Shown piece by piece: positions 14,101-54,743 of a DNA stretch of 64,000 nt. Both the position numbers and the translations under genes were made by a program. Every line of letters starts with the position of its first letter. The stretch's first letter is position 1. Source of the stretch: a virus (lineage: Duplodnaviria; Heunggongvirae; Uroviricota; Caudoviricetes); IMG/VR virus record IMGVR_UViG_3300025009_000056; one strand, written 5' to 3'. Under the pieces are notes generated by a model. That model had not been told where the DNA came from, made no database searches, and saw only the letters and a program-made list of their open reading frames with translations.

Positions 14101-17100
14101 TATTTTCGACACCAATATTTTGCTCCTCACTGATAACTGGAACAACTACCTCCTCTGTCAAAACAGGCTCAAATCTATTCGTGACATTTGCATTTGGATA
14201 TTTTTCAAGAATCCACTTTTTCAACTCACTCTCGATTGCACTAATTCCCGATTTTGCAACAGGAACTTTTTCTCCAACGATTGCGGAAATAACCTCTTGT
14301 CTTTTCTGTCTATTATGGTCTCCGGATAAATTATATATCAAATCCCCTATAGCCCGATAGTCTTTTCCGGCTTTCACGACCTGCTCGTCAACCATTTTCA
14401 CAAACGGATGTGGATACTCACCTTTCACAACATCACCATTCTCAAATTTATCTTTATATAGAATGGCTACATTTTTCAGAAAACCAAATCCATATTTCGA
14501 CTTAATGTAACTAATATCATCATCTATTACGTTGTCGTCAACCTGCGCAACATAAGAACCTCTGAAAATAATAAAATATTCACCGGATTTACTATGCTTA
14601 ACAATGCTGAAATACTCCTGAATTTCCAAATCCTCGAAATCTGATGAATTCCACCAATCACCCGTTATTTTATGAATCTGTGTTGAAAGCGGATTTCTAT
14701 CGGAGATAACAATTACTGTTGCGCTTTTCTGCACATCACCACCATTTTCAAATAATTCACCATTACTATAGTCTCTGCTTAACACTCCTATATTTCTGTC
14801 ATGCTCCGCCTCAAAAACAACATCTTCTACATATTGCGAACCCCATGAGGCTCCCAACTCCCAGTTACCCTCATCATCCATAAAATAATGACGGCCAAAA
14901 TAATAAACAGGGTTTTGTTTTTTCTCGAAAACAACTTTATTATTGTTTTCAAAATATATCGTTCTTTCTTTTTCCACATCCTCCCTCGTGAATGGAGTAT
15001 TAATATCTCTCACAGCACCACCGTCTTCGAACATGGTTATTCCGGCCATCTGTACCTGATTCTGGTCAAATAAACTCATACTGTTATCGTTTTCAATTGT
15101 ATCCTGAATAATATTACCCTCATTATTAAGCGTTTTGTCTATATTTTCACCAACAACATCACCTTTGTCAAATTTCCAGTATTCAGTCTTCAAGCTAATT
15201 CCAACTTTATTTTTGTAAATTGGATTTTTATCCACACGGAATTTATCGACATAATCAGAGCTATTAAAATCACTGATAAACAAATCAGCTTTTTCCGCTG
15301 ATTTCATATCAAGCACCCTTCTTGCTACGGAATTCTCTTGCATTTCTTTAAAAAGATTTCCCCAAAATGTATTAATCTTGCTTTTCCTATCATCCAACCT
15401 TCCACCATCCTCAAACGGCAAATCCAACGTGTTATCCCTAAACATTTGTTTGAGCTTATTCTTTTTCGCGTTCCAATTACTTATATCATATTCATCCCAC
15501 TCGCTCACTGGCTTGCTATAAAGGTAATTCGTCTCATCACCAACCGCTCCAAGAAGTCTATAAACACTATCCTGTGTTGGCACAACTCCACCATCTTCCA
15601 GAATTTCGCCGTTTGGTTTTATTGCGCCTTTCATTTTCTCATCAATTAAATTATTTTCCTTACTCGATTCAATCAAACAATCACAATCAATAGCTTTTCC
15701 GCCGCCATCCTGATTTATTTTCGACAACTCCTCGCAATGCATCTGTGCTGCTTTTCTGGTAATAACAATCTCAGCCTGCTCGATTTCTATCGGCTGTCCG
15801 GTTTCTTTCACCACCATTGGGATGCCGTCATTTGTATGCAGCTCTCCATTATACGCAGCGCCACCATCGGCTATACTGTTATCGTCCTGAAGTGTAATAT
15901 TGTTTACTGAATCGCCCTTTTCCATTTTGTTTGATTTATTGTTTACTAAATTCATTTCTGTGTCATTATTTTTTTCACCATCATTAATATCTACAACCGA
16001 GTCCTCTTTAATATCAAATATTACACTACCATAAGAACCGGAATCCGGATTTGCATCACCCTCTTTTACCGGAATATTTCTAACATCAATCCCCTCATAT
16101 CCCAACGCTTTCAGAATAATAGTTGCCGATGTATCCACGATATTTGTTCCGTCAGACGGCTGCTCTAATCTATTTTCCGCTTTCACTGAATTTTCAAGCA
16201 GCGATTTTATTATTTCATCTTTTTTCGCTGTCAACTCATTCTTAAATTCGGAAATAAAGTCACTGAATAAAGAGTATTCTTTTAATTTCGAAATCATTGA
16301 ATCCCAATCGGAATAAACCCTATCTGCGCTGACAATATTAGGAGTCTGACTTAATGCGTTTTTAATCCAGAAATAATCAGAACTGTTTGACGGCCTTAGC
16401 AAATTATACTGAGAGAAATCAACTGCTTTTACACTTTTCTCTCCGGTTAATCTATTTCCGCGTTGCATTGCTGGCTCAATGGATGAATAGAAATAATATC
16501 CGGTGAAAGGAACTGATGTGCCGCGCAGTGTACTACCAATACCCTCAGCCTTTTTATATAAATCACCACCGTGATAACCCAAGTTGTCAACAGAACCACC
16601 GTCCTCAAATTTTATATATTTGACAACGGATTTAAACTTATCGTATTCCCTTTGTTTAATCGGCTCGCTTATTCCAAAATTTTCTTTTAGGTATTCAGAC
16701 ATTTCACCAATGCCCATGTTTTTAATATCGTCAATAACCGTTTTGTATTCAGAATCACTCAACTCCCTAAAAACGATTACCGGAATAGTCTTTGCGCCTA
16801 AACTCTTTGCGGCCAGCGCCCGATGTCTTCCCTCTTGTGATTTACCGCCAATGGTTAAATATGGTATTTCAAATAAATCACCAGCTTTCATTAATTCAGC
16901 AATTTCTATTACATTATCATCGGAAACATACTGCATATTTTCACCAGTCGACAAGAAAAATCCTTTTGAAACATCATACATGTATTCATCCGGAGTCATT
17001 TCAACTATTTTTGCAGTCTTTGACTTTTCCGTAATAGCATAAAGTGGCATATCAAATTCGACATGCTTTCTTTTCGCATCATCGTAATCCCAGTTTATTT

Positions 17101-20100
17101 CAGTTGAAACATTGCCACCGTTCTCAAATCTAATATCCGGATTTTCGGCATTGAAAGTGGTGTTCGTTCCGTCTGCGAGTTTTATTTGGGTTGAATCAAA
17201 ACAACTTATAATAGCACCTCTATCCCAATGGTTGAATTTTATTCCATCGTAATTATTCCCTCTTAATATTTCAGAAACATCATCATTAAAATAATCGTTG
17301 TTTATTGATTTAACCTCACTTATCACATCACTTGGACTTTCACCCTCAACTATGAATAGTTTTCTTATATTTAAAAACACAGGTAAAATCGTTTTCCCAT
17401 ATTCTTTAAATTCATCTTTACTTATGGAAAAATAGAACCCTCTTCCCAACCACCCTATCAATTGCTTTTGCTTGTCAAACTCATATATTTTTGCTTTAGC
17501 CCTATTGTAAACCACCAATGGCTCTCCATTGGAATCTACAACTTTACTCGCGTTTTCTGGGTCGTTAATCCAGTCACCAAACCACGAAAGAAACTCTGGT
17601 GTGCGGACTAATTCATATTGCTCCGGAGTCAGGTTACTCGTTTTCCCGTTAGGTGCAACCATGCCACCATCCTCCATTTCAGCAACAGGGCAACCAACAA
17701 CAGCTTTTATACCATCGGTAAATTCAATAGTTCTAAAACTTTCCTCATTAAATTCACACGGTTCCACCTGACGAAATCTGTATGTGTTTTCTTTTTCGTC
17801 AACATCGGTTTTATATCCGTGTTTTTTCAACCACGCCTTAGCTTTCTTCAGTGTAAAATTGTCTTTTGAAAACAAAAGAGTTTGCACCTTTGTGCCAACC
17901 GGACATTCTACAAAACCACCCTGTTCAAATTTATCTTTGAGTGTGTTTTTAATTTCAGCTTCAGACGGAGCGGCAATAACTTTTCCGTCCGGTAATCTCA
18001 AATTCTGAAACCTGCTCGGATATTGATAAAAAGGGTTTCCATATTTCGAGAAATTAATAATTATCTGATTTGATAATGTAAACGAAATATCGGAGCCGTA
18101 GTTAAAATAAATGTCTTGGTCTTTTCTTTTTCCGGAGCTTTCAACATTCAATAAATCATCATTTGCACCGAGGAGTAAATCGGATAATTTGTCATACATC
18201 TTATTCTTGTAAGATGAAATATCCATCGTTGATTTTTCATCAGATATTTTCTCGATTAACTCATCAGTGTTTTCAAGCTGATATATATTGTGCGCACTAT
18301 TTTCATCCTTAACGAATGTAAACGGCCTGAGAGCATATCTGATTTCTCTATTTCTCTCGAAATTGTTTTTATCATTAACATTCAATGGGTAAAGAATGTC
18401 AACATTATTCGTACCCTTTCCAACAATCTCTTTCTGAAATTCAGAAATAATATTGTTATACATTCTTTTGTACGATTCTTTTATTTCTAAACGGAAAGCC
18501 TCAGCGACCTCATCTATTACGCGCTTTATTTTCGGGTTTATCTTTCCGGTTACTTCCTGAATTCGCTTTTCCTCTGTTACGCTTTTAGGCTCGCGTTTTA
18601 CAATGCGGCCTTTTATCAGCTTTAATTTCTCGGCTACCTTACGCCTTAATTCCGTATTTCTATCGGGAGTGTTATAATAGTCGTATATTTCCCTCTCGTA
18701 CTTATTCATTGCCTGAATATCCGACTTTTTTAATTTACCGCCCCAATGCAATTCATTTAGTATTGTGCTATTTCCATTGACGGGAGTTCCCTCTTTAAAT
18801 AGGAAGTCATGCAGGTTTTTATATTCCAGATTGTCACGGTGAATAATATCCCAAGCAAAGTCTGAAAAACCTTTTTTCACAACGAGACTGACTTTTTCGC
18901 TGAAAGCACGTTTCATTCTATCGTAATCAGCCTTAATAAGCGTGTCTTTTTCTACGTCAAAGTCTAGAAATTCATTTATTGCATTAACATACTCTTTTGG
19001 TGCTCGTTGTTGCATTGCTCCAATAACAACAGCCCTTTCGTCGGTGGAAATAACGCCACCGTCCTCAAATCTAATATCCGGATTTTCGGCATCAAAAGTT
19101 ACATTTGTTCCATCCGCGAGTTTTATTTGTTCCGGATAAAACGCCACGTATTGATTGTTTATCAATTCTTTTATCCCTCTTTCTCCGAATAGGTTAATCC
19201 AATAGTTTTTATCATCATCATTTAATGGCTCTATAAAATAACCATCATGGTTGTCTTTTATCAACTCATCCCTTAAGATTTCAGGACTCGTACTCGTCAT
19301 CGTCCATTGGCGAGCATTTACTGTTTTCGGGGTTTTTATAGACAAGAAACAATCAATTACCTTTGAACCTTTTTTCAACTCACTCTTTTCCGCCAAACTC
19401 CACTTATACCGCGTAAAATCCTCGGCTAAACTTTTATTATTTGTAAAATAAAAACCCATTTTACCCCAATCCGCACCAGTCTGCTTGGTTGCGTGTTTTA
19501 AAGAGAAAATAGTAAAATCTTTTACAGTTCCATGATAAACCACCAACGGCTCTCCATTGGAATCTACAACTTTACTCGCGTTTTGTGGGTCATTAATCCA
19601 ATCACCGAACCATGCTTTAAACTCGGGTGTACGGACTAATTCATATTGCTCCGGAGTCAGGTTGCTCGGTTTTCCATTGGGAGCCAGCAACACATCATCA
19701 TTCTTTTTACGCGAAATTTTAAAATCAACCAACGTGGGCTGTTTTCTTACAGGTCTCTTTTCTTTCGGCAAGTCATAATATTTCAATCCGAACTCCATCA
19801 GATTGGCATAAATAATTTCTTTTTGTTTCTGAAAATCCGACTCATTCTCATGTTCCGCTATCAACCCTTTTTCAATCGCATCGTAAATGACATTGGTTTT
19901 CATTTGCGGAATACCGTATTTTTTCGCAACCTCATCAATACCCATCTTGTCGGAAATGGAATATATCTTTTGTCTGAATTTAGCCAGATATTTTTCCGGA
20001 CTTTTTTTCACCACGATGCTTTTTCCAGAATCGCGTACAATATCTTTTTTACCCATAATGGATGCAACAACGCCACCGATAACACTGAGCGGAATAACAC

Positions 20101-20179
20101 TCTTTGATGAATCGACATTGATTGTATAGTTTTTCTTTCTCCCCTTTGGCTTACTATACGTGAATTTCAAACTACCCAT
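11129..20179 (-). CDS. Giant (~3016 aa) multidomain polyvalent-type effector protein: two tandem-related ART modules (second with His->Asn), ParB-like nuclease domain, coiled coils, many FEDGG motifs
   Basis: Uninterrupted 9.1-kb ORF; ORF track start 20257 is TTG (rc of caa) lying upstream of a predicted promoter; first ATG (MGSLKF...) at 20177..20179; motifs VVYHGTVKD, VVYNRAKAKIY, QEGRHRALAAKSLG. Confidence 0.75.
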   Translation of the reverse strand: MGSLKFTYSKPKGRKKNYTINVDSSKSVIPLSVIGGVVASIMGKKDIVRDSGKSIVVKKSPEKYLAKFRQKIYSISDKMGIDEVAKKYGIPQMKTNVIYDAIEKGLIAEHENESDFQKQKEIIYANLMEFGLKYYDLPKEKRPVRKQPTLVDFKISRKKNDDVLLAPNGKPSNLTPEQYELVRTPEFKAWFGDWINDPQNASKVVDSNGEPLVVYHGTVKDFTIFSLKHATKQTGADWGKMGFYFTNNKSLAEDFTRYKWSLAEKSELKKGSKVIDCFLSIKTPKTVNARQWTMTSTSPEILRDELIKDNHDGYFIEPLNDDDKNYWINLFGERGIKELINNQYVAFYPEQIKLADGTNVTFDAENPDIRFEDGGVISTDERAVVIGAMQQRAPKEYVNAINEFLDFDVEKDTLIKADYDRMKRAFSEKVSLVVKKGFSDFAWDIIHRDNLEYKNLHDFLFKEGTPVNGNSTILNELHWGGKLKKSDIQAMNKYEREIYDYYNTPDRNTELRRKVAEKLKLIKGRIVKREPKSVTEEKRIQEVTGKINPKIKRVIDEVAEAFRLEIKESYKRMYNNIISEFQKEIVGKGTNNVDILYPLNVNDKNNFERNREIRYALRPFTFVKDENSAHNIYQLENTDELIEKISDEKSTMDISSYKNKMYDKLSDLLLGANDDLLNVESSGKRKDQDIYFNYGSDISFTLSNQIIINFSKYGNPFYQYPSRFQNLRLPDGKVIAAPSEAEIKNTLKDKFEQGGFVECPVGTKVQTLLFSKDNFTLKKAKAWLKKHGYKTDVDEKENTYRFRQVEPCEFNEESFRTIEFTDGIKAVVGCPVAEMEDGGMVAPNGKTSNLTPEQYELVRTPEFLSWFGDWINDPENASKVVDSNGEPLVVYNRAKAKIYEFDKQKQLIGWLGRGFYFSISKDEFKEYGKTILPVFLNIRKLFIVEGESPSDVISEVKSINNDYFNDDVSEILRGNNYDGIKFNHWDRGAIISCFDSTQIKLADGTNTTFNAENPDIRFENGGNVSTEINWDYDDAKRKHVEFDMPLYAITEKSKTAKIVEMTPDEYMYDVSKGFFLSTGENMQYVSDDNVIEIAELMKAGDLFEIPYLTIGGKSQEGRHRALAAKSLGAKTIPVIVFRELSDSEYKTVIDDIKNMGIGEMSEYLKENFGISEPIKQREYDKFKSVVKYIKFEDGGSVDNLGYHGGDLYKKAEGIGSTLRGTSVPFTGYYFYSSIEPAMQRGNRLTGEKSVKAVDFSQYNLLRPSNSSDYFWIKNALSQTPNIVSADRVYSDWDSMISKLKEYSLFSDFISEFKNELTAKKDEIIKSLLENSVKAENRLEQPSDGTNIVDTSATIILKALGYEGIDVRNIPVKEGDANPDSGSYGSVIFDIKEDSVVDINDGEKNNDTEMNLVNNKSNKMEKGDSVNNITLQDDNSIADGGAAYNGELHTNDGIPMVVKETGQPIEIEQAEIVITRKAAQMHCEELSKINQDGGGKAIDCDCLIESSKENNLIDEKMKGAIKPNGEILEDGGVVPTQDSVYRLLGAVGDETNYLYSKPVSEWDEYDISNWNAKKNKLKQMFRDNTLDLPFEDGGRLDDRKSKINTFWGNLFKEMQENSVARRVLDMKSAEKADLFISDFNSSDYVDKFRVDKNPIYKNKVGISLKTEYWKFDKGDVVGENIDKTLNNEGNIIQDTIENDNSMSLFDQNQVQMAGITMFEDGGAVRDINTPFTREDVEKERTIYFENNNKVVFEKKQNPVYYFGRHYFMDDEGNWELGASWGSQYVEDVVFEAEHDRNIGVLSRDYSNGELFENGGDVQKSATVIVISDRNPLSTQIHKITGDWWNSSDFEDLEIQEYFSIVKHSKSGEYFIIFRGSYVAQVDDNVIDDDISYIKSKYGFGFLKNVAILYKDKFENGDVVKGEYPHPFVKMVDEQVVKAGKDYRAIGDLIYNLSGDHNRQKRQEVISAIVGEKVPVAKSGISAIESELKKWILEKYPNANVTNRFEPVLTEEVVVPVISEEQNIGVENNEIKDEQMNKNKDKEDSNPVGRYEFGMEYEEDFPTMDMLNTGAKASLSWGVGKLEKLTESLRDMNFHPTNKILIKAIKQYKDGNVSGAEESLKEFKIACLKEIAEFKQPVSDTGEEKPYLDPVYEAGILERFEKALSNYNETKDKKYFNVQHGDTSNTVVGTLAEFIIEVVIKSKQPEKLSVYYDLLEKAGLSKTMVKDDYMYNWITYAYDKTDETLFYEIFAESNLNLFEFIPEKFKKKSDVRPLSYKLDPSDKNLINIMDDFAATKDSVARDILKAIRFDEHGVSATNANVLAFINGKVSKKGNFCLTKDCIETYDIPDGGEIKSGNDSDKTRYPEYIGVLPQNNNNRNIINVNSLEIFANAMYKSGIVQKAGVAGVVIKIDELVVKVSSENLIKATTFMKRLGYDKIEISGSTNKRGLLFMPVGSAADARSLKNPFVLVMPLHIEGYDIPVEILDYPCFDCNDETVKVVNRESIESIDISPDGLVNTEIGKTKKKLQKDADVEKERLQKEITRAKDESREQIEAINKREAEKNKRAAEKKLKEDLVRQKAEELKAEKARKDKEEADRLAEEKRIADEKAELDEKERLLAEKNAARIIAQQEKAGKKMSAKQKELAEKKAEEMALLQLLSSESERQESELELLEVEMSDGEEMISNSGKAKPTQSEINDFIDYMSEFYGKQGLYAKDYNGGFTREQIAAAVDKYVKDKETNWGHGDSVDRELTRDKYLAPYSIDKKEAWEMTAAERWSAERKRAIQADGMAYVKKHMATLDEYKYGSHKKMIEQAIADGKPVPVEVLADYPDLVSKKEKGGKIESEKPFESAKEIEDYFGVSVNVYDEYTNEVELESPKASEITFGWSIDGQWIDGVSLKSIRLPKTRSLITASWISDKINKEKIYKDFSVIFKDILVKSGHSGSSINVYPTTYGIGVAVIFNPSGSNDKEQITNLLKQTGVSFTNEYSDAGYVYRYKISKSKENIDKIKEYLDKINN
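16700..16950 (-). other. ParB/sulfiredoxin-like nuclease domain within giant protein 2
   Basis: rc of 16801..16850 encodes GGKSQEGRHRALAAKSL (ParB N-domain GxxRxxA-type motif). Confidence 0.45.
17050..17600 (-). other. ART module B (paralogous duplicate, His replaced by Asn: VVYNRAKAKIY...GRGFYFSIS) ending in NPDIRFENGG
   Basis: rc of 17475..17520 encodes EPLVVYNRAKAKIYEF; >90% nt identity to module A over 17521..17650 vs 19541..19690. Confidence 0.5.
19000..19650 (-). other. ART module A (catalytic His intact: VVYHGT...GFYFTNN) ending in NPDIRFEDGG
   Basis: rc of ~19530..19550 encodes PLVVYHG; module begins ...TPEFKAWFGDW. Confidence 0.5.
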
Positions 20180-20204
20180 TATTTTCTTTTTTATTATAAG
20201 GAAT

Positions 20205-20245
20205 GTTGCAAAGATACGAAATAAAACAGCCCATGTCAAATTACG
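20205..20245 (-). promoter_or_regulatory. Putative Bacteroidetes-type promoter (-33 TTTG / -7 TATCTTTG) for giant protein 2
   Basis: rc of 20209..20216 = TATCTTTG; rc of 20237..20240 = TTTG, 20-nt spacing; ~29 nt upstream of ATG 20179. Confidence 0.5.
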
Positions 20246-20302
20246 TTTATTAATCAAACAGTAATTTTACACAGGCCGCTACTACACATTCGCTAAACGC
20301 AC

Positions 20303-22697: not shown

Positions 22698-23720
22698 TCA
22701 AAAGTCGTTTTCACCCTGCGGCTTAATCAGTGATAACGTTTTAGATATTCTGTCATTATTAGCCTCAGAATTCACGTTACCTTTATCATTATCCAAATAT
22801 TCGAATTCGGCATCCTCTTCGATTCCAGAGAATGATGCTTGGTCATACTTAATAGCCTTCGCTATATTAATTGCTGACTGCTGGTCAATAGAAAGCATCC
22901 CGTATTTACCCAATAGTAATTTCAATACGGTTTTCTTGCCCATATCTTTAAAATCAGTCACCCAGTTTCCCTCTCCCAGCCTGTAAGATTTTGAGTATTT
23001 TTTAGCATGTCGCTCAATCTCCATTGCCGACATATACATGTTTTTTTCAAATCCGGCTGTGAGCTTGAAGTATGCATAATACCCAACAATTTCACCTTTA
23101 CCCTCCGGCTCATACCGCATTTTCCACTGACTCTTATCTGTCAAAGAAAGCTCTTCCGTGAATGGATTATACGACACGAATTCATCTTTATAAACCTCCG
23201 TAACAATCAATTTGGCATATTGTCCGGTTCTCTCAGCTAGCTGCACGTAAGCTTTCCACATCAACTGAAGTTGCGCGGTGTGACTATGCGTCCCTGTCGG
23301 ATTTTTCTTTTTATACGGAACAATGGCAGCGTATCCCAAGTTTGGGTCAATGGATAAATTCATACTGGCCGCAATAACGGCAGCTGAAACTATACTCAGT
23401 GGCTCACAGTTTCTCAAACCGTTAGATTTACTTACAACGACTGAAAGGTTACTCATGAAAGAGTTTGCGTACTTATCCAACACCTCTGCAAAACGCCGCC
23501 GAACTTTATCATCACGCAATAAATCAGTAAATGTAAGTGGTTTTCGCTGAAGACCAACCTGCATTTTATCCTCACCACCACACTGAGCATCTGGAATTAC
23601 AGCAGCGTTTTCAACATCTACGTTTGTATCAACCGGATTTGATTCTGGCTGATTTTCGACAGATGCTTCTGGTTGCTGCTGTAACTCCGAATTTTCAGTA
23701 TTTTTTTTCTTTAATGCCAT
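22698..23720 (-). CDS. recT: RecT-family single-strand annealing protein (recombinase)
   Basis: FTDLLRDDKVRRRFAEVL..., SIVSAAVIAASMNLSIDPNLGYAAIVPY, AQLQLMWKAYVQLAERTGQYAKLIVTEVY - RecT/Red-beta core signatures. Confidence 0.8.
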   Translation of the reverse strand: MALKKKNTENSELQQQPEASVENQPESNPVDTNVDVENAAVIPDAQCGGEDKMQVGLQRKPLTFTDLLRDDKVRRRFAEVLDKYANSFMSNLSVVVSKSNGLRNCEPLSIVSAAVIAASMNLSIDPNLGYAAIVPYKKKNPTGTHSHTAQLQLMWKAYVQLAERTGQYAKLIVTEVYKDEFVSYNPFTEELSLTDKSQWKMRYEPEGKGEIVGYYAYFKLTAGFEKNMYMSAMEIERHAKKYSKSYRLGEGNWVTDFKDMGKKTVLKLLLGKYGMLSIDQQSAINIAKAIKYDQASFSGIEEDAEFEYLDNDKGNVNSEANNDRISKTLSLIKPQGENDF

Positions 23721-25768: not shown

Positions 25769-27511
25769 TTAAAATTTAAAAAGACTATCAGGGTCAACGG
25801 CGCGGCTTTCCGGTTCTTTTTTCGGCTCCGGTTTTGGTTCCTCTGGTTTTATTTCCTCAGCGGGTTTTTCGTCATCGAAAATATTATCCATGCCGCTATC
25901 ATCAATACTCAAATCATCCTGAACGGCTTTGTCATAATCCTCTGGCGACTGGATAGCTTTACGACTTGTCTTCACAGTCTTTTCAGTTCCCACCTCTTTC
26001 GGCTCGCGTTTTTTAATATCAACAAATATTTTTTTCGCTTTTTCCTTGTTTTCAATTCCGGATTTGGTATCGACAATATCGCCATCCTCAATGTAAATAA
26101 TATTCGGGTCTTCATCCTCCATGTTTACATTGTCAACCTTAGCAATGATAAACTGAATATCATTATCAATACACCACTGATTAATAATCTTACGGTTATC
26201 CTCATCAAGCTTCTCACCATCATCATAGAATACAGCGCGAAGTTTCGGATTCATACTCATGCAGAGTTTAGTAGATATAATCCAGCTTTCAGCACCCGAC
26301 CAGTTTTTAGAAAATGTGCCATTGTAATACACCCCATCCTCGCGGAGTTCCAGACCGTCTACATTTATTTTGGCATCGAGAAGCATTTTCTTTTTCTTTT
26401 CACGCTTTTCCTCAATACTCTTAGTTTTGTCATCGTACTCTTTTTGCTTCTTATCACAATTCTCCTGCTTAAGAATAGCGTCACTGTATGCTTTTGCTTT
26501 TATATTCGTTTCTTCGCAGTTTGCGATTTTCTGCCGCACTTCGTCTTTTTTGGTGTAATCCGGTTCCGGTAAAATAGAAATTTCCGGCTTCAGGTCAAGC
26601 GGCTTTGTGAAATCATCAATCGACAATGAAATCACATTCGATATTTTAAGCAGATAATTTTTTTTCTGCGTGTAAATATCAGTGTGATACGGTTTGAATT
26701 CCACGAATTCATCTTGTCCCACTATCTTATTAGACGGAGCCATTACCCCACCATTCTGCAAAGCCTCATTGATAGACTCTATCTGCTGATTTAGATTACC
26801 AAGCATCTTAACAGCGTTATCTATTAACGACTGTCTGTCGCGCTGCTCATCATTGAATTCTTTAATAATCTCTAATTCTAGCTTTTGTCTATCCTCAAAA
26901 TCCTTTTTTGTCTTTTCGTTTTTAATATCAATTCGGTCACTCTCAGCATTTAATTCGGTAAGCGATACAGATTCTACTTTCTCCGGAATAACAATTTTAC
27001 CAAACTCTTTTACCTCACGACCAACATAGGTGCGCAATGTTTCAAGTTCGGCAATTTCCTTATCTATCTGAGTAAAATCAATCCCCGCGAATTTCATTAA
27101 AAAGGCCAATTGCTCCTCTGGTTTTTTAGACACAAAGGGCATTGGATTGAAACTGATTTCATTAACAAGGCTATCAAGAAATGCCTGTGGTTTTTCTTTC
27201 AATTCAAATCCATCTGACCGACGAACCTGAAACGTGGTTTGACTCCTGTTTTTAGAAAATATTCTACGAATAGTATAGTCTCCGATTTTACCGATTATCT
27301 CCAGCTTTTCTGCGCCATCATTAACAGCGTTAGCGGGAAGCGCGGATACACCCTTGAGTAAAATATCTATAGAGTCAAGCACTGATGTTTTACCCTGACC
27401 GTTTTTGCCTGCGATTTCTATCAATCCGTTTTCAGAAAACGACATCGACATCGCTTTAATTTTACGAAGTCCGGAGACTTGTAGGCCGATTATTTTTAAT
27501 TTGTCTTCCAT
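25769..27511 (-). CDS. SbcC/Rad50/RecF/SMC-family ATPase (580 aa) with central coiled coil
   Basis: Walker A GKNGQGKTSVLDSI; signature-like WSGAES; Walker B LRAVFYDDGEKLD; long charged coiled-coil middle. Confidence 0.6.
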   Translation of the reverse strand: MEDKLKIIGLQVSGLRKIKAMSMSFSENGLIEIAGKNGQGKTSVLDSIDILLKGVSALPANAVNDGAEKLEIIGKIGDYTIRRIFSKNRSQTTFQVRRSDGFELKEKPQAFLDSLVNEISFNPMPFVSKKPEEQLAFLMKFAGIDFTQIDKEIAELETLRTYVGREVKEFGKIVIPEKVESVSLTELNAESDRIDIKNEKTKKDFEDRQKLELEIIKEFNDEQRDRQSLIDNAVKMLGNLNQQIESINEALQNGGVMAPSNKIVGQDEFVEFKPYHTDIYTQKKNYLLKISNVISLSIDDFTKPLDLKPEISILPEPDYTKKDEVRQKIANCEETNIKAKAYSDAILKQENCDKKQKEYDDKTKSIEEKREKKKKMLLDAKINVDGLELREDGVYYNGTFSKNWSGAESWIISTKLCMSMNPKLRAVFYDDGEKLDEDNRKIINQWCIDNDIQFIIAKVDNVNMEDEDPNIIYIEDGDIVDTKSGIENKEKAKKIFVDIKKREPKEVGTEKTVKTSRKAIQSPEDYDKAVQDDLSIDDSGMDNIFDDEKPAEEIKPEEPKPEPKKEPESRAVDPDSLFKF

Positions 27512-29085: not shown

Positions 29086-30087
29086 TTAAAATTTTATCTC
29101 ATCGTATTTCGCATACGCTGGAATTCCCAAAAGGCAAATTCCACCATCCAAAGAACTGTATATGTCGTAGCTCTTATACTTGTTTCTATTCTGAGCCATC
29201 TTTATTTGCGCCAATCTGGTTTGATACTGCTTCCGGCCAAATTCTATATACTCACTTTGCGCGAGACAGGCAAAAACCATATTATCGTATGGTGGTTCTT
29301 TTTCAATAGCTCCAAAATAGAAATCATAATCATCTGGGTCTTTTCCTACAGCAGCGGCAATAATATCAATATACATTGCGGACTGAATGTGATATTCCAT
29401 TTTGAAAGCCTGCGCCTCAAATCCATTCTTAATTGGAGATGCTGTAATAGATGTTTTCACATCAGCAATATAGGTCGTAATTTTAGAAACATAGTCCGGT
29501 CTGCACTTCAACAAAAGCCGTCTATTTTCCGGAATATTAGCAGCCTCTTTTATGTTCAGGATTTCTACCTTGAAGAACTTTTCGGGGTCTCCGGTTTCCT
29601 CCTGACCAAAATAAAATTTAGCACATGCAAGAAATGAGTACTCACAAATCCCGTTTGCACCATCAAAAATATGCATGTATGATTCTGATTCTTTCGCAAC
29701 CTCAAACATCGCTTTCGCGGTGTCCGTAATTTCTTTGGCTAAACATTTCTTTCCGGCTAATGCGGCCTCAGCCATAAATCTTTCCCGCGCAGTCTTATTG
29801 GCTTTATTCTGATAATTGCTATCTGGATACGGTTTCATATCCTCGTTCCAGATGGCATATTCCGTTTCTATCTTATTCGGCTCAAGAACGAGTGTGTGGA
29901 AATAATTTCCTAAAAGAGTGTCGCGTGTTTCAGTAAATTCCTCCGGATGCTCTTTTTTATACTGATATTGTTTCGGGGTTTTACAACCCTTAATATCTGA
30001 TGGAGATATAAAATCCTTTCGTTTTTTATATACATCAAACGGCTCCTCAAATACAGAGTGTAATGCGCTAAGTTCTTCGGGTTTCAT
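29086..30087 (-). CDS. PD-(D/E)xK exonuclease (YqaJ/lambda-Exo/RecB-nuclease-like), likely partner of RecT
   Basis: LLKCRPDYV (D), IADVKTS ([DE]xK), QSAMY (QxxxY) nuclease motifs. Confidence 0.65.
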   Translation of the reverse strand: MKPEELSALHSVFEEPFDVYKKRKDFISPSDIKGCKTPKQYQYKKEHPEEFTETRDTLLGNYFHTLVLEPNKIETEYAIWNEDMKPYPDSNYQNKANKTARERFMAEAALAGKKCLAKEITDTAKAMFEVAKESESYMHIFDGANGICEYSFLACAKFYFGQEETGDPEKFFKVEILNIKEAANIPENRRLLLKCRPDYVSKITTYIADVKTSITASPIKNGFEAQAFKMEYHIQSAMYIDIIAAAVGKDPDDYDFYFGAIEKEPPYDNMVFACLAQSEYIEFGRKQYQTRLAQIKMAQNRNKYKSYDIYSSLDGGICLLGIPAYAKYDEIKF

Positions 30088-36659: not shown

Positions 36660-37463
36660 TTATTTTATTTCTAAATTACTACACTTTGCACAAACACCAT
36701 TTAAGTGATTTGTCATTTGAAAACACTTCTCACAAAAGTCGAGTTCAAATTTAGGCTTTTGGTTAAAATCAAGAATCCGTTTTAGGTTCGTTTTTCTTTT
36801 TACCTCTGTAAATTCTTTCAGGCGCTCAATAAGCTCCAGTACTTTTTCTCTCGACGGCTCCGGTAAATGATTATTTCCGGAATCAGCTCCGATATTAATC
36901 GCTTTCGGCTTGCAGTCTTTTATCATTTGCACAAACTCATCCATATCAAAATCCATAATAGGCTCAATAGTCACCTCTTTTTCCGGACAGTCAATCAGAG
37001 AGAAATACACCGAGCGCTCTGTCGGCTTCGGAGAGTTAACCATGAATTCCGGATAATGCCTATTTGTTTCAAGCGTGGTGCAAAAAACATTATTTTTCAA
37101 ACCATCAAACTGACCATAGTATTCCAACATGCGCTTTGTGTTCTTTGTCTGGAAATAATATCTATTATTTGGATATTTTTCAACGTGTTTGATTATATTG
37201 GTTATAATTTCATCATGCACATTATCAGCAAACAGGTCGTTTTGTGAAACCATGAAAATCGTTTTATTTTCACCCCAATTCTTTAGCTGTTTAGCATCTA
37301 AAAAAGGCGCACCAGAATATTTTTTCGCTATATTCGGGTATCGGCTAAATCTTTTCGTACTACAATACGAACAATCGTGATAACACTTGCCACCAAGCGG
37401 GTTGCTTCGCACATCAACGAAGTCGTACATGTTGTCGTTTCCTTTTTTCTTACTCATTTTCAT
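36660..37463 (-). CDS. Putative radical-SAM-like protein (CX3CX2C motif near N-terminus; 267 aa)
   Basis: GGKCYHDCSYCSTKRF = CxxxCxxC [4Fe-4S]-binding-type motif; family not resolved. Confidence 0.35.
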   Translation of the reverse strand: MKMSKKKGNDNMYDFVDVRSNPLGGKCYHDCSYCSTKRFSRYPNIAKKYSGAPFLDAKQLKNWGENKTIFMVSQNDLFADNVHDEIITNIIKHVEKYPNNRYYFQTKNTKRMLEYYGQFDGLKNNVFCTTLETNRHYPEFMVNSPKPTERSVYFSLIDCPEKEVTIEPIMDFDMDEFVQMIKDCKPKAINIGADSGNNHLPEPSREKVLELIERLKEFTEVKRKTNLKRILDFNQKPKFELDFCEKCFQMTNHLNGVCAKCSNLEIK

Positions 37464-37988: not shown

Positions 37989-38609
37989 TTAATATTGTAG
38001 GTTCCTGCATTCATCAGTATACAACAGTTGGTGTCTTTGCTGCGCCTCATCCCAATTTTTTGGAAAAGTATATTTTCCAAGCCAAACCTCACTAAATGCT
38101 TTTTTCATTTGTTTAGCGCACACATCGTAAGGAAGTTGACCAACACCAGTGCCAAGTCCACTAATTGTAACCGTATTAAACCGACTCTCACTTGTCAATA
38201 AATTAAATATAGCTTTCGATGCCAGATAAACATTGACTGTGTTTTTTAATATCATCGGAACACGCATGGTTGGTGCTGATATGCAAAAAGGTATTTGCTC
38301 AAAATCAGTTTCAATCAACTCAGCCTGTCCAACCAAAATTTCACCCAAATATTTTTCACGTATCCTTTTCTGAAGTTTATCCTGAATCTGCTTTCCTATT
38401 TTTCTCGTAATAAGCATATCTAATCCACCGTCCATGAATCCGAAAGAATTAGCCGGAGATACAACGCAATCAGTTTTCAAAGAAAAAAAATCCCCGCAAT
38501 AAATAGAAACATCATTACAGTCTTGGAATTGCAATTTCCATTGTTTACACATTTCTTTATTTCTATCTATTAGTTGGAATTTCATCAGGAGCAAATGTTT
38601 TATGTTCAT
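37989..38609 (-). CDS. Macro domain protein (ADP-ribose binding/ADP-ribosyl hydrolase-like)
   Basis: DVSIYCGDFFSLKTDCVVSPANSFGFMDGGLDMLI matches macro signature (..GDIt....DaIVNaAN..l..GGGvd.ai); start may be an internal Met (38552/38585). Confidence 0.6.
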   Translation of the reverse strand: MNIKHLLLMKFQLIDRNKEMCKQWKLQFQDCNDVSIYCGDFFSLKTDCVVSPANSFGFMDGGLDMLITRKIGKQIQDKLQKRIREKYLGEILVGQAELIETDFEQIPFCISAPTMRVPMILKNTVNVYLASKAIFNLLTSESRFNTVTISGLGTGVGQLPYDVCAKQMKKAFSEVWLGKYTFPKNWDEAQQRHQLLYTDECRNLQY

Positions 38610-39959: not shown

Positions 39960-40478
39960 TTACTTATCACCCAAAGATAGCTCCAATGTAAGTTCGGTAA
40001 GTATTTTACCTAAAAGATTTTCACCCCAATTTTTAATATTTTGAATAGCCTCGCATTCAAAAAAACCTATTCCCCATATTGTATCATCAGGAGATGCCTC
40101 TACAATTTGAAAGCCTTTGTATTTTAATAATTGCTTTTTCAATTGCGGATTTTGATTAAACTTTTCCCTGAGTCCTTTTTTCACAAGTTCGTATTTAACC
40201 AAATCCCATTTCGCTAGATTAAAATTGCGCACCTCACGGCCTAATTCTTTTTGCCGTCTCGCAGATTGTGCCTGAAGTATTTTATTTGCAGTTTCTTGGT
40301 CGTTAAATGTCATTGCTTTCTGATGCATCATATACTGTTCTCCACAATTATACTTAACGCCATCAACCTCAAAATGAGATTCATGCCAATTGCTGAAAAC
40401 ACCATTCCAAAAGAACATGTATTTTACGCCGTTAAATGTTTTATTCATAAAATAATATTTAATGTATGTAAAATACAC
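39960..40478 (-). CDS. NADAR (YbiA-like, DUF1768) domain protein
   Basis: YMFFWNGVFSNWHESHF...NCGEQYMMHQKAMTFNDQETANKIL...ASPDDTIWGIGF - NADAR family hallmarks (FSNF-like, EQY..QK, SP.D.IWGiG). Confidence 0.6.
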   Translation of the reverse strand: MYFTYIKYYFMNKTFNGVKYMFFWNGVFSNWHESHFEVDGVKYNCGEQYMMHQKAMTFNDQETANKILQAQSARRQKELGREVRNFNLAKWDLVKYELVKKGLREKFNQNPQLKKQLLKYKGFQIVEASPDDTIWGIGFFECEAIQNIKNWGENLLGKILTELTLELSLGDK

Positions 40479-40510
40479 CCCAACCCAAAAATTGAATCGG
40501 GGTGTATTTA

Positions 40511-41992
40511 TTAAAGCTGAGAATTAATTCGCTGTCTGATTTCACTTAAACTTGTCTCTGTGACCAGTTTTCCATCCTCAAAAACAGTTTCCAGCTCCCC
40601 GTAATTTTCTACCTCTCTTGTCACTTGGTCTTCAAGATGTAATTTGTCGACATCGGAATACACATAAAGCAGACCCTTTGCTGATTTTTTAAATCCGGAA
40701 TCAGTTTTTGGATTTTTGAAAATATCCCGCGCTTCACCATTGACCTGCCCCCATGTAGCTTTCATCGCAAATCCAAATGTGTCGCGCGTAACATACTCGT
40801 AAGTGTACGAGCCTATTCCAAAAACAAGATTACTGGCAGAAAATCCTTTCACCTCAAGTTTTTCGAGTATCAGTTTTTGTCTTTCAAGCGTTATGGAATC
40901 GCCGTAAATAAGTCCGACTTTTGGATGTAAAACCTTATACCCCTTTTTGTTAATTTCTCCGCCAAAAATATCCCAAAGGATTTCATATGCACCTTTGCGC
41001 TGGCTTTCCGTAATAAGTGATTCAGGTGTTTCATCATCTCCGCAGATAATTTTCACAGGGTCTCCGCTGTCGGGACGAATAACAACTCTGCCATCTCTGG
41101 CGAGAATTTCATTTTTCAGCGCGGGAAGATATTCTGTCATAACTTTCCAAAAATCCCATGTGTCAGAAACAATACTAACGATACCATTGGGATATAACTC
41201 TGTAATAAGTCTTTTAAATGTATTAATTTCGCCCTCTTTTTCACCAAGGCTCATAACGCTATGCTCGGTAGCGGGAACACTACCACCAATAAGCTCTTTG
41301 TCGGAATCAGCGTTGTAATATTTCTCCAGAAAATCAATCGCTGGGATGGTATCGGTTCCGGTAAAAGACAATAAGTGTGCAGCACCACTCAGTAAAGCAT
41401 CCTCGTTTCCACTCATGCCCCTAAAGCTGAAATCATGCCCCTGCCACTGAATAAAAGATTTGTCATATCCTGTTTTCTCAGCATATTCCTCAAGTCTTTT
41501 GCGATATTGAAAAGCTGTGGTGGCACTCGTGATAGGCTTCCACATAATATTACTCATCAATGTCTCAAAATAATTAGTAAGCCAGAAAAACTTAGGCATG
41601 GTGTTCACAATGGTGAAAACCGGAACACCAATCGGAACCAAACGTCCCTCACTGATAGCCTTTATCCGAATAGGCAAATATCCTAAATCATGGAGTTCGG
41701 CAATATGCTCACACGGGATAGCATCAACACCAAGATAATTATCCATCCGGCGTTTATACTCGCGCAAAACCTGTTCTTTCGGCTTTTCAAAAAACCCCTT
41801 ATTCCACCTTTCAATCAGGTATTCTTTTACAAAATACTGAAGCCCGAAAAACACAACCTCATCTATTCCGGCAATACGGCTCTGTCTGGGTGTAAAGTTT
41901 GAGTAAACATACTCTGTTCCGGCGGGATACTGTCTGCGGTGGTCAGCTTTATACCCGTCGATTAGGCACATTGGATTGATGTCTGTAATCAT
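40511..41992 (-). CDS. Nicotinamide phosphoribosyltransferase-like protein (NAMPT/NadV family; candidate Namat of NARP1)
   Basis: 493 aa; N-terminal DGYKADHRRQYP (cf. NAMPT DSYK.THY.QYP); size and family fit. Confidence 0.7.
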   Translation of the reverse strand: MITDINPMCLIDGYKADHRRQYPAGTEYVYSNFTPRQSRIAGIDEVVFFGLQYFVKEYLIERWNKGFFEKPKEQVLREYKRRMDNYLGVDAIPCEHIAELHDLGYLPIRIKAISEGRLVPIGVPVFTIVNTMPKFFWLTNYFETLMSNIMWKPITSATTAFQYRKRLEEYAEKTGYDKSFIQWQGHDFSFRGMSGNEDALLSGAAHLLSFTGTDTIPAIDFLEKYYNADSDKELIGGSVPATEHSVMSLGEKEGEINTFKRLITELYPNGIVSIVSDTWDFWKVMTEYLPALKNEILARDGRVVIRPDSGDPVKIICGDDETPESLITESQRKGAYEILWDIFGGEINKKGYKVLHPKVGLIYGDSITLERQKLILEKLEVKGFSASNLVFGIGSYTYEYVTRDTFGFAMKATWGQVNGEARDIFKNPKTDSGFKKSAKGLLYVYSDVDKLHLEDQVTREVENYGELETVFEDGKLVTETSLSEIRQRINSQL

Positions 41993-42009
41993 TTTTTAGT
42001 TTTTAGTTG

Positions 42010-42864
42010 TTACAATTCTATTTTAAACTGCGTTACAAGTTCGTTCTTTACGTCTTTGAATGAGTTGGTGGTGTAAATCTTTTTGAAATACTGAGCCAAT
42101 TCATCAAAGCCTTTCGAGAATATCCCATGAGAAACGAAAAGGTAAATGTCTCCGGCATTTTTCTTCTTTAATTCTTTTGCGATACCTACAAAAGTTCCAC
42201 CACCATCACAAATATCGTCAACAATCATGCATGGCGCACCACCTAAATCATCGCAAAAAACCTCAAATCCGCTCAATTTTCCATTGCTTACATCTCGTTT
42301 TTTATCACACTTAACCAGTGATTTGAAATATGCAGCCTTTTCAAAAAGCTCGTTTGATTTTTTATTCGCTCCAGAATCAGGAGAAACTAATACTATCTTA
42401 TTGATAACACCGCGAATATCAGCTATTGCTCTTTCAACATAATTTTCGTTTGAAATATTTACGCAGCCATCAATAAGGGCTGGTGAAATACCAGAATGAG
42501 CATCAAGTACGAAAACGTTATCGAATTTCAATGAGTTAATCAGGTTAGCAAAAACCTTTAATGAAAACGATTCACCATTTACACACACCCTATCCTGTCT
42601 CGCGTATGGAATATATGGCATAACCAAATCGAATTTCTTAACACCCTTTCTTTTCAGTGCGTCATGTGCTAACAGAACCTCCATTAATTTATCACTATCG
42701 GTTATTCGATGAGTGATGACAACGGATTCAATTTCGTCATAATTAATATTGTTATTCAATTTGATATGAACCTCACCGCCATTAAACCGCATATTTTCAA
42801 ATTCGATTTCTGGCCGAAAGGCTACAGGGACAAACATGCTGTCTAAATTAATAGCTCTTTTCAT
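42010..42864 (-). CDS. Ribose-phosphate pyrophosphokinase-like protein (Prs family; candidate ADP-ribose pyrophosphokinase Adps of NARP1)
   Basis: MPYIPYARQDRV (Prs signature), LDAHSG, VSPDSGA, MIVDDICDGGGT (PRPP-binding). Confidence 0.75.
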   Translation of the reverse strand: MKRAINLDSMFVPVAFRPEIEFENMRFNGGEVHIKLNNNINYDEIESVVITHRITDSDKLMEVLLAHDALKRKGVKKFDLVMPYIPYARQDRVCVNGESFSLKVFANLINSLKFDNVFVLDAHSGISPALIDGCVNISNENYVERAIADIRGVINKIVLVSPDSGANKKSNELFEKAAYFKSLVKCDKKRDVSNGKLSGFEVFCDDLGGAPCMIVDDICDGGGTFVGIAKELKKKNAGDIYLFVSHGIFSKGFDELAQYFKKIYTTNSFKDVKNELVTQFKIEL

Positions 42865-42878
42865 TTTTTATTTTTTAG

Positions 42879-45816: not shown

Positions 45817-46299
45817 TTAGATTTGTTCCTCTCTTATTATCCTCCGGATTTCACTGAGCGCGATGGGTGCTTTTCTAACATCCGCGCATACATTAAAATA
45901 CCGTTTGTCGTTTATTGTTTTTTCATGAACGTGTCCATGAATATTAACCTTACCATGCAACTCGTCTGGATGTATCGGGAAATGTGTAAACCAAAACTCA
46001 TCGTGTTTTTTACACCCCATCACCTTATTCACGCACCTCAATAACTCTGGAACATGCTGTGGAAAATCATGATTCCCGAGAATTACATTTATTATTCCTT
46101 TCAACCTTTTTAGCGTGGTGTAATCACCTTTTTCCATCGTAATATCACCAAAAAGATAAACAGTGTCTTTCTTTGTTATCAGGTTGTTCCAACTGGAGAC
46201 GATTAACTCATCCATCTCCTCTGCGCAACTGAAACCCCTCGCTATTGCGATGTTATTATGTCCAAAATGCGGGTCTGAAAAAGCGTATATCTGACTCAT
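45817..46299 (-). CDS. Calcineurin-like metallophosphoesterase
   Basis: SDPHFGH, FGDITMEKG, LGNHDF, HGHVH phosphoesterase motifs. Confidence 0.7.
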   Translation of the reverse strand: MSQIYAFSDPHFGHNNIAIARGFSCAEEMDELIVSSWNNLITKKDTVYLFGDITMEKGDYTTLKRLKGIINVILGNHDFPQHVPELLRCVNKVMGCKKHDEFWFTHFPIHPDELHGKVNIHGHVHEKTINDKRYFNVCADVRKAPIALSEIRRIIREEQI

Positions 46300-51747: not shown

Positions 51748-51815
51748 GCCTGCTGACAGGACTCGAACCCGCAAAATAAGTAGCTAACTTGTGTTATCAA
51801 TTTCACCACAGCAGA
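51748..51815 (-). pseudogene. Truncated tRNA-like element (68 nt: 7-bp acceptor stem, D-arm, canonical T-arm GCGGGTTCGAGTCCTGT, but anticodon/variable region ~5-6 nt too short)
   Basis: rc: TCTGCTGTGGTGAAATTGATAACACAAGTTAGCTACTTATTTTGCGGGTTCGAGTCCTGTCAGCAGGC; acceptor pairs 1-7/66-72; anticodon arm folds only as 4-bp stem with 5-nt loop. Confidence 0.3.
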
Positions 51816-53210: not shown

Positions 53211-53708
53211 TTATTTTCTATTTAAAATTTCCACAACTTTCTCAGCACATATTCTCGTTAATCCATAACCGATGTCAATGCAATCCGGATGGTCGCTATT
53301 GCCGGATGTTTGTACGAAATTATCCATCTGGCTCGGCAGCATATCGGTGCAATCGTCGATTATGCAATAATTCTCCACCTCATCCTTGTGTTCATTCAGG
53401 TATTGTTGAATTTCAAACCCCCTATCAACCTCGTCGTAGTATTCACACACTCCGGTTTCAACCACATCAACCTCATATGGTGTAACATTAATCACTTCTC
53501 CGGCTAATCCGCGATGTTTCCACATTGCTTGCATAACATCCAGCCCATCCGCTTTCCATGTTGAACTAATAACAATTTTGGCTCCGGTTTGCTCGATAAC
53601 ATACCGCAAATTATCCTCAAAATGCCTATGAAACAAACCGCCGAATTCATCACGGTCTACCGGAATCACATTCAATACGCCGTCAATGTCTAAAAATATT
53701 ATTTTCAT
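53211..53708 (-). CDS. HAD-superfamily phosphatase (possibly deoxyribonucleotidase-like)
   Basis: MKIIFLDIDGVLN (DxDx[TV] motif I), ...VISSTWK (motif II-like). Confidence 0.55.
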   Translation of the reverse strand: MKIIFLDIDGVLNVIPVDRDEFGGLFHRHFEDNLRYVIEQTGAKIVISSTWKADGLDVMQAMWKHRGLAGEVINVTPYEVDVVETGVCEYYDEVDRGFEIQQYLNEHKDEVENYCIIDDCTDMLPSQMDNFVQTSGNSDHPDCIDIGYGLTRICAEKVVEILNRK

Positions 53709-54649: not shown

Positions 54650-54668
54650 GATTTCATTTTTTAATTTG

Positions 54669-54743
54669 TGGTTCCGGAGGGACTTGAACCCCCGACCCTC
54701 TGCTTATGAGGCAGACGCTCTATACCAACTGAGCTACGGAACC
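54669..54743 (-). tRNA. tRNA-Met (anticodon CAU; elongator-type; could be tRNA-Ile2 if lysidinylated)
   Basis: rc: GGTTCCGTAGCTCAGTTGGTATAGAGCGTCTGCCTCATAAGCAGAGGGTCGGGGGTTCAAGTCCCTCCGGAACCA; full cloverleaf, anticodon loop CTCATAA. Confidence 0.85.

Follow-up and report, generated by a model that had tools for sequence, protein, structure and literature searches.

A 64,000-nucleotide stretch of viral DNA (IMG/VR record IMGVR_UViG_3300025009_000056, Caudoviricetes; here called the window) carries two adjacent genes, adps and namat, which very probably form an NAD+ reconstitution pathway 1 (NARP1) operon. The phage is uncultured, comes from groundwater, and probably has a host among the Bacteroidota. 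NARP1 rebuilds NAD+ from ADP-ribose (ADPR) and nicotinamide after bacterial immunity has destroyed the NAD+ pool (Osterman et al., 10.1101/2024.02.11.579819). The same study identified a phage "Prs" as an ADPR pyrophosphokinase (Adps) and a phage "Nampt" as a nicotinamide ADPR transferase (Namat), placed Adps in a clade apart from cellular Prs with Namat nearby in 97% of that clade, and described a second pathway, NARP2, in which phages pair a Nampt without the adenine clamp discussed below with a nicotinamide mononucleotide (NMN) adenylyltransferase (Nmnat); no phage had both pathways. A counter-defense role of NARP1 has been demonstrated experimentally for Bas63, FADO, SPbetaL1, and ICP1 (10.1101/2024.02.11.579819; PMC13586617). 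The window pair is one more diverged example of this known pathway and not a new system. The initial annotation of the locus was correct about the pair, but it missed the adjoining NADAR gene, a recurrent partner of such operons.

Both genes lie on the minus strand, which holds nearly all genes of this phage-like window (GC content, 34 to 39%), and both open reading frames (ORFs) begin with ATG (Table 1). The first encodes a 284-amino-acid protein with a Prs-like two-domain fold, matching PF13793 Pribosyltran_N (3.8e-15), PF14572, and PF00156 in Pfam, and the second encodes a 493-amino-acid protein matching PF04095 NAPRTase (1.5e-39) and PF18127 NAMPT_N (6.3e-12); these matches are far beyond chance. 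The ORF list and Pfam agree with the Prs-family and NAMPT-family assignments made initially, and the two motifs pointed out in the shorter protein, PYIPYARQDR and VDDICDGGGT, are indeed found at residues 83 to 92 and 215 to 224. The peptide DGYKADHRRQYP, said to begin the longer protein, is present near its N terminus, at residues 12 to 23, but is not its literal start. On the coding strand the Prs-like gene is directly upstream of the NAMPT-like gene, as had been described, and the 17-nucleotide spacer between them, CAACTAAAAACTAAAAA, is A rich and has no Shine-Dalgarno sequence. The start context aactaaaaa..aaaaATG is common to adps and namat, again without a Shine-Dalgarno sequence, and spacer and shared context together are consistent with cotranscription and Shine-Dalgarno-independent initiation. 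Identical copies of the 284-amino-acid protein, with unchanged neighbors, occurred on 16 metagenome contigs of up to 196 kb, from groundwater and elsewhere, which shows that the gene pair is genuine rather than created by assembly. A megablast search of GenBank phages with the 2.35-kb region returned no match, indicating that the window phage has no close cultured relative.

The profile scores of the 284-amino-acid protein follow the pattern of validated Adps. It matched phrog_619 over its full length at 281 bits and TIGR01251 at 145.5 bits, and the former score was likewise the higher one in the Adps of Bas63 (333 and 138.5 bits), JG004 (323 and 115.7), Gary (278 and 100), and SPbetaL1 (248 and 106), the reverse of what is seen in E. 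coli Prs (193 and 423). The protein also fell below every cellular Prs equivalog cutoff. Its amino acid identity was 31 to 35% to the Adps of Bas63, JG004, Gary, and ICP1 (31% for ICP1) and 27% to those of SPbetaL1 and FADO, compared to 24 to 27% with the Prs of E. coli, B. subtilis, M. smegmatis, human, Sulfolobus, and Thermoplasma, and the validated Adps are no closer to each other than the window protein is to them. In a neighbor-joining tree built from six cellular Prs, five reference Adps (Bas63 [MZ501086], Gary, JG004, SPbetaL1, and FADO), the window protein, and its relatives, a split with 99.2% bootstrap support set the cellular Prs apart from the Adps, the window protein, and its relatives from metagenomes. 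ICP1 Adps was added only later, in the residue alignment.

The structure of ICP1 Adps has been solved, yielding a sequence-structure rule with three elements: a PP loop that is remodeled (C215-S220) and has a Phe lid, Lys185 as the catalytic residue, and loss of the alpha11-alpha12 C-terminal module (Liu et al., PMC13586617). Using the ICP1 sequence and the residue numbers of that study, we mapped the active site of the window protein. Three alignment columns separated all seven reference Adps from all six Prs sampled, and the window protein was of the Adps type in each (Cys219, Gly221, and Phe225). Its PP loop reads C219-D220-G221-G222-G223-T224-F225 (compare C215-S220 and F221 in ICP1); position 221, Gly in the window, is Thr in 6/6 Prs and not Thr in 7/7 Adps, and position 225 is Phe in all aligned Adps, including the window protein, and Ile or Leu in all Prs. 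The second lid residue (ICP1 F223) is Gly in the window and varies among the reference Adps too. The tail after the HGIFS motif is 34 residues long, as in ICP1 Adps, versus 61 residues in E. coli Prs, and the alpha11-alpha12 module of Prs is absent. The catalytic lysine of the beta-hairpin is present as Lys188 (K185 in ICP1 and K162 in SPbetaL1), and the ICP1 acceptor residues R87, H121, D161, D212, D213, and D216 are kept as R89, H123, D163, D216, D217, and D220; because Prs keeps these residues as well, they speak for a competent enzyme but not for its specificity. F27, the counterpart of the ICP1 adenine contact Phe18, is also conserved in Prs. The alignment with characterized Adps and cellular Prs that had been proposed as a check places the features that separate the two families on the Adps side, except for the adenine contact Phe92, which is Cys94.

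The 493-amino-acid protein sides with Namat. SPbetaL1 Namat has been solved (PDB 9W5X and 9W5W), and an adenine "selectivity clamp" has been defined in it, with mutagenesis (Lan et al., PMC12774641); the clamp has two parts, one of which, the SCL loop, contributes a stacking residue (Arg, Lys, or Tyr). The window protein scored 611 bits against these structures versus approximately 235 bits against human and Xanthomonas Nampt, and it is 57.8% identical to SPbetaL1 Namat versus approximately 35% to the Nampt of KVP40, Xcc, and human. When we aligned it with the proteins of SPbetaL1, FADO, Bas63, Gary, and JG004, PDB 9KE8, and those three Nampt, the tree separated the Nampt from the Namat and the window protein with 100% bootstrap support. 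The SCH motif is GSYTYEYVTRD (residues 394 to 404), compared to GGGLLQQLDRD in KVP40 Nampt and GGGLLQKLTRD in human Nampt, and Arg39 of the SCL aligns with SPbetaL1 Arg40. At each of the 20 NAD+-contact positions, the residue is either identical or replaced as in other Namats, and the catalytic His244 is conserved together with F188, D214, and R306 (F189, D215, and R306 in SPbetaL1). Against characterized Namat and Nampt, then, clamp, NAD+ contacts, and clade all fall on the Namat side.

A further solved protein, PDB 9KE8/9KEO, named "nicotinamide phosphoribosyltransferase," shares 53% identity (490 bits) with the window Namat and groups with the Namat side of the tree. Its SCH motif is GAQTYQRNTRD, its SCL has Glu, and the clamp aromatics are absent. 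We considered whether 9KE8 is KVP40 Nampt and rejected this; tblastn finds no GenBank phage as its source.

The two genes also travel together. We collected viral relatives of the 284-amino-acid protein by scanning IMG/VR with a family alignment and extracted the SCH motifs of their partners by alignment. A Namat homolog was found beside the Adps relative in 156 of 161 loci (79/81 viral loci and 77/80 loci in bacterial genomes). The homolog was on the same strand in both sets, and in the viral loci it usually abutted adps, the two exceptions being cut by contig ends or without one; in the window, namat is the very next gene after adps and so within the 10 genes used as a criterion of linkage. 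The Adps-type PP loop was present in 161/161 relatives. Among 72 gap-free viral SCH motifs, 69 had an aromatic residue at position 3 and 59 had one at position 7. A claim of the initial annotation, that the pair represents NARP1, is thereby supported by clade, clamp, PP loop, catalytic Lys, truncated C terminus, and linkage; family and subclade membership, activity-defining residues, gene structure, and genomic linkage are established.

Sixteen of the 161 loci had a partner with the SCH motif GGILRNH-SRD. This third SCH type, GGILRNH-[ST]RD, resembles neither the Namat clamp nor the Nampt motif and occurs with an unchanged PP loop (L175-L183, L187, and L191, from Pedobacter and others, as well as L055 and L086).

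The closest bacterial relatives of the window Adps are from Pedobacter, Mucilaginibacter, and other Bacteroidota, and the closest Namat relatives (65 to 72% identity) are in metagenome-assembled genomes of Bacteroidota. The A-rich starts without a Shine-Dalgarno sequence, together with closest relatives in Pedobacter, Mucilaginibacter, other Bacteroidota, and crAss-like phages, suggest that the host of the window phage belongs to the Bacteroidota. In 66 of the 80 bacterial-genome loci (L175-L254), Adps is adjoined by NrtR (NUDIX plus NrtR_WHD), reportedly described by Rodionov et al. in 2008 as an ADPR-responsive regulator of prs-nadV operons, and this adjacency ties the Adps family to ADPR and fits an ADPR-centered function. 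Larger Bacteroidota clusters also occur (e.g., L195:5195-12242), with NrtR, Adps, NADAR, KptA/Tpt1, a metallophosphatase, an NDT-like protein, Namat, and a MacroD-type Macro protein.

By homology with the four experimentally studied systems, we infer both the activities of the window enzymes and their anti-defense phenotype. The 284-amino-acid Adps would convert ADPR and ATP to ADPR pyrophosphate (ADPR-PP) and AMP, and nicotinamide would then displace the pyrophosphate of ADPR-PP on the 493-amino-acid Namat, yielding NAD+ directly. The predicted adenine clamp (Arg39, Tyr396, Tyr400, Thr402, and Asp404) would select ADPR-PP over phosphoribosyl pyrophosphate (PRPP), and no NMN adenylyltransferase would be required. 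As NARP1 is already known in approximately 4% of sequenced phages, to which the window adds one diverged operon, the value of the pair is mainly confirmatory. The published rules for Namat (clamp) and for Adps (PP loop, Phe lid, and C-terminal truncation) hold at 27 to 58% identity and in 161 further loci, and they are therefore usable for annotating metagenomic phages.

Among named systems, the NARP1 of Bacillus phage SPbetaL1, FADO, E. coli phage Bas63, and Vibrio phage ICP1 has the layout of the window operon, with adps followed by namat on one strand after a short spacer. It shares with the studied NARP1 systems the clamp motifs, NAD+ contacts, PP loop, Phe lid, catalytic Lys, truncated C terminus, and the absence of a nearby Nmnat, but its Adps is only 27 to 35% and its Namat 46 to 58% identical to theirs, it has Cys in place of Phe92, a NADAR gene follows namat, and it comes from an uncultured phage with a probable Bacteroidota host. 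In the NARP1-AP of Vibrio phage Gary and Pseudomonas phage JG004, the order is Adps-Adpp-Namat (10.64898/2026.01.28.702374). The window Adps (32 to 35% identity) and Namat (49 to 50%) belong to the same clades as theirs, and there is a Macro-domain gene in the neighborhood, but no Poa1p-like Macro gene lies within two genes of the window adps or namat. The NARP2 of Vibrio phage KVP40 (Nampt/NadV and Nmnat/NatV) likewise has a NAMPT-fold enzyme using nicotinamide, with the restoration of NAD+ during infection as its aim; the window differs in having no Nmnat in its 64 kb, in its adenine clamp, in its Prs-like partner, and in falling in a separate clade. NARP3 is defined by a PnuC transporter and a NadR-like enzyme (PMC13464706), and no such Pfam match (PnuC or RNK-NMNAT) was found in the window ORFs. 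Bacteria carry NARP1 as well, an example being Paenibacillus foliorum (PMC12774641). The bacterial NrtR-associated prs-nadV/NARP1 clusters have the same PP loop, usually the same Namat clamp, and often an adjacent NADAR gene (14/80). They carry NrtR (66/80) and often KptA, a metallophosphatase, an NDT-like protein, and a MacroD-type Macro protein, whereas beside the window pair only NADAR has a clear homolog.

Several points weigh against a NARP1 operon. The TIGR01251 score of the Prs-like protein (145.5) exceeds the cutoff of 113 and is the highest of the Adps set, although Bas63 (138.5) and JG004 (115.7) score similarly, and the canonical Prs motif PYARQDR is kept. In the window protein and all of its close relatives, Cys94 takes the place of the ICP1 adenine contact Phe92; this is the sole sequence feature tested that falls off the NARP1 side, although the position varies among validated Adps (Cys in JG004 and Met in Bas63). 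The Adps-type PP loop is also found in the 16 relatives whose partner is without the aromatic clamp, so it identifies members of the clade without proving that they use ADPR. The cellular side of the neighbor-joining tree consisted of six Prs, several of them partial, and our Nmnat search spanned the 64-kb window, about one-third of a genome that measures at least 196 kb. The score above the subfamily cutoff, the retained PYARQDR, and the span of the Nmnat search would all suit classical salvage, in which the Prs-like enzyme supplies PRPP from ribose-5-phosphate for NMN synthesis by the NAMPT-like enzyme, with a host NadR/NadD/PncC route or a phage Nmnat outside the window (NARP2) finishing the synthesis. 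The Pfam and NCBIfam names of the two proteins are those of this route, Prs and NAMPT, and Namat enzymes keep NMN-forming activity in vitro (PMC12774641). Even so, we regard classical salvage as very improbable. The NAMPT-like protein has a complete adenine clamp, and the KVP40 NARP2 Nampt, with its SCH motif GGGLLQQLDRD, sits in the other clade at 100% bootstrap support; the Prs-like protein has a remodeled PP loop and stays below all cellular Prs equivalog cutoffs; and no phage has been reported with both Adps and NARP2 (10.1101/2024.02.11.579819). Moreover, no PF01467-type or other nucleotidyltransferase match was obtained by Pfam in the window ORFs of at least 140 amino acids, including two giant ones, the best tblastn hit of KVP40 NatV on the 64-kb window had an E value of 0.21, and an Nmnat domain beside Adps is absent from all 81 related viral loci. 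The earlier statement that no NMNAT gene is seen nearby therefore stands for the 64-kb window, which is part of a larger genome (at least 196 kb). NatV-like matches beside bacterial Adps, which would favor a NARP2-like salvage, were rejected as Nmnat; they cover only NatV residues 186 to 339 and correspond to the Nudix domain of NrtR.

A second alternative keeps the chemistry from ADPR and nicotinamide to NAD+ but assigns it mainly to housekeeping, as recycling for the phage's own NAD+ consumers. Two tandem giant ORFs of the window encode polyvalent proteins, both with ART-PolyVal domains, and the phage therefore has NAD+-consuming enzymes of its own beside NARP1, NADAR, and Macro. In such a cycle, the giant ART proteins would use NAD+, NADAR or the Macro protein would free ADPR from adducts, and Adps and Namat would close the loop. 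The position of NADAR right after namat and of the Macro gene 1.9 kb downstream would fit, and the bacterial NrtR clusters with KptA, Macro, NADAR, and metallophosphatase genes point to recycling of ADPR by-products. The giant ORFs, however, lie over 20 kb from the pair, separated from it by unrelated genes, the window Macro type accompanies neither Adps nor NADAR in 160 viral loci, and counter-defense has been shown for the NARP1 of Bas63, FADO, SPbetaL1, and ICP1. We consider a mainly housekeeping role very unlikely; it is, besides, compatible with counter-defense.

A strong RNA hairpin lies directly after the namat stop, followed by a YbiA-type NADAR gene whose product has PDB 8BAU NADAR and YbiA as its nearest solved structures. 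None of 200 shuffles folded as well as the hairpin, which is possibly a terminator or 3' boundary, an attenuator, or a stabilizer of the adps-namat transcript; its position makes ATG 40448 the likely NADAR start rather than GTG 40478. Scans of the window for consensus promoters and terminators gave no excess over shuffles (32 versus 30.4 and 6 versus 5.3, respectively), so operon boundaries are not given by such consensus sequences, and the hairpin was not among the terminator matches.

NADAR was found inside NARP operons at 3 of the 81 viral and 14 of the 80 bacterial-genome Adps loci. Counted from the NADAR side, a Namat or Nampt homolog lay within 8 kb in 17 of 79 viral loci, against a rough chance expectation of approximately 2; 12 of these 17 also had Adps, and NADAR abutted Namat in 10. 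Among the gene orders are Adps-Adpp-NADAR-Namat and Adps-NDT-like-NADAR-Namat, the latter with tight overlaps, and two loci with a NatV-like match, NADAR, and a Nampt or Namat homolog in a row may be of the NARP2 type. Loci combining NADAR and NARP are spread over many unrelated viral and Bacteroidota contigs (L020, L035, L036, L099-L109, L113, L124, L185, L195, L196, L199, L202, L214, and L221). The NADAR/NARP gene neighborhood has been remarked on bioinformatically by the Aravind group in 2022 (PMC9503650), and our literature search found no functional study of a NADAR role in NAD+ reconstitution.

Judged from gene order and recurrence, NADAR is probably an accessory gene of the window operon. 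A more specific proposal, which we put forward only tentatively and think doubtful, is that it is a third pathway enzyme, an N-glycosidase acting on an ADP-ribose conjugate or signal to free linear ADPR. Such a conjugate might be made by the host or by the phage's two giant ART-domain proteins. A precedent for a glycosidase in a NARP1 operon is found in mycobacteriophage DyoEdafos, where RyDEP converts an ADPR derivative to linear ADPR that feeds Adps and Namat (10.64898/2026.05.28.727677); unlike there, the accessory gene of the window encodes a NADAR of the YbiA fold and not a RyR-domain protein. If the proposal is true, NADAR would widen the range of NAD+-derived products recycled by NARP1, as do Adpp (ADPR-1''-phosphate) and RyDEP (cyclic ADPR isomers). 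Its presence in many NARP1 and possibly two NARP2-type operons and in NrtR clusters offers a testable lead for a further accessory activity, and this NADAR partner is the only lead with some novelty at the locus.

TABLE 1 Positions of the features discussed, numbered from the first letter of the window
Feature	Position	Strand	Description
Giant ORF, polyvalent protein	1925-11074	minus	3049 amino acids; ART-PolyVal, E 8e-15
Giant ORF, polyvalent protein	11129-20257	minus	3042 amino acids; ART-PolyVal, E 1e-32
RecT	22698-23720		
SMC/AAA_23 ATPase	25769-27511		
PD-(D/E)XK DUF3799	29086-30087		
Radical SAM/DUF5131	36660-37463		
Macro-domain protein	37989-38609	minus	PF01661 1.4e-10; PF14519 8e-8; six genes/1.9 kb downstream of namat
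NADAR, YbiA type	39960-40448	minus	162 amino acids from ATG 40448; PF08719 2.9e-45; TIGR02464 147 bits
RNA hairpin	40471-40509	minus	18 bp; dG -23.8 kcal/mol; z -5.85; directly after namat stop, before NADAR
namat, NAMPT-like ORF	40511-41992	minus	493 amino acids; ATG start; second gene of pair
Spacer, adps stop to namat start	41993-42009	minus	17 nucleotides
adps, Prs-like ORF	42010-42864	minus	284 amino acids; ATG start; first gene of pair
Start context of adps	42865-42878	minus	
Small calcineurin-like metallophosphatase	45817-46299	minus	
tRNA-Ala(AGC)	51748-51815		
HAD_SAK_2 "Swiss Army Knife RNA repair" protein	53211-53708	minus	
tRNA-Met	54668-54743		

The Macro protein downstream is a generic Macro with relatives in Rhizobium/Sinorhizobium phages, Gifsy-1, and jumbo phages. 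Pairwise comparison with Gary Adpp gave no similarity (E 0.62), and its type was absent from all 160 related viral loci (with Adps or NADAR), while the Gary/JG004-type Adpp was detected by tblastn in 13 of the 81 related viral loci, a fraction similar to the published 15%. We therefore rejected the Macro protein, which also lies outside the two-gene distance from the pair, as an Adpp, and the locus is not NARP1-AP.

Among the other genes of the window (Table 1), one of the giant ORFs also has LPD1 and a weak methyltransferase match. Pfam gave nothing useful for 13 small neighboring ORFs, and none of them recurs in the related loci. Homologs of the small calcineurin-like metallophosphatase were present in 11 of the 81 related viral Adps loci, and in Gary and JG004, too, NARP1 has phosphoesterase and RNA ligase genes as neighbors.

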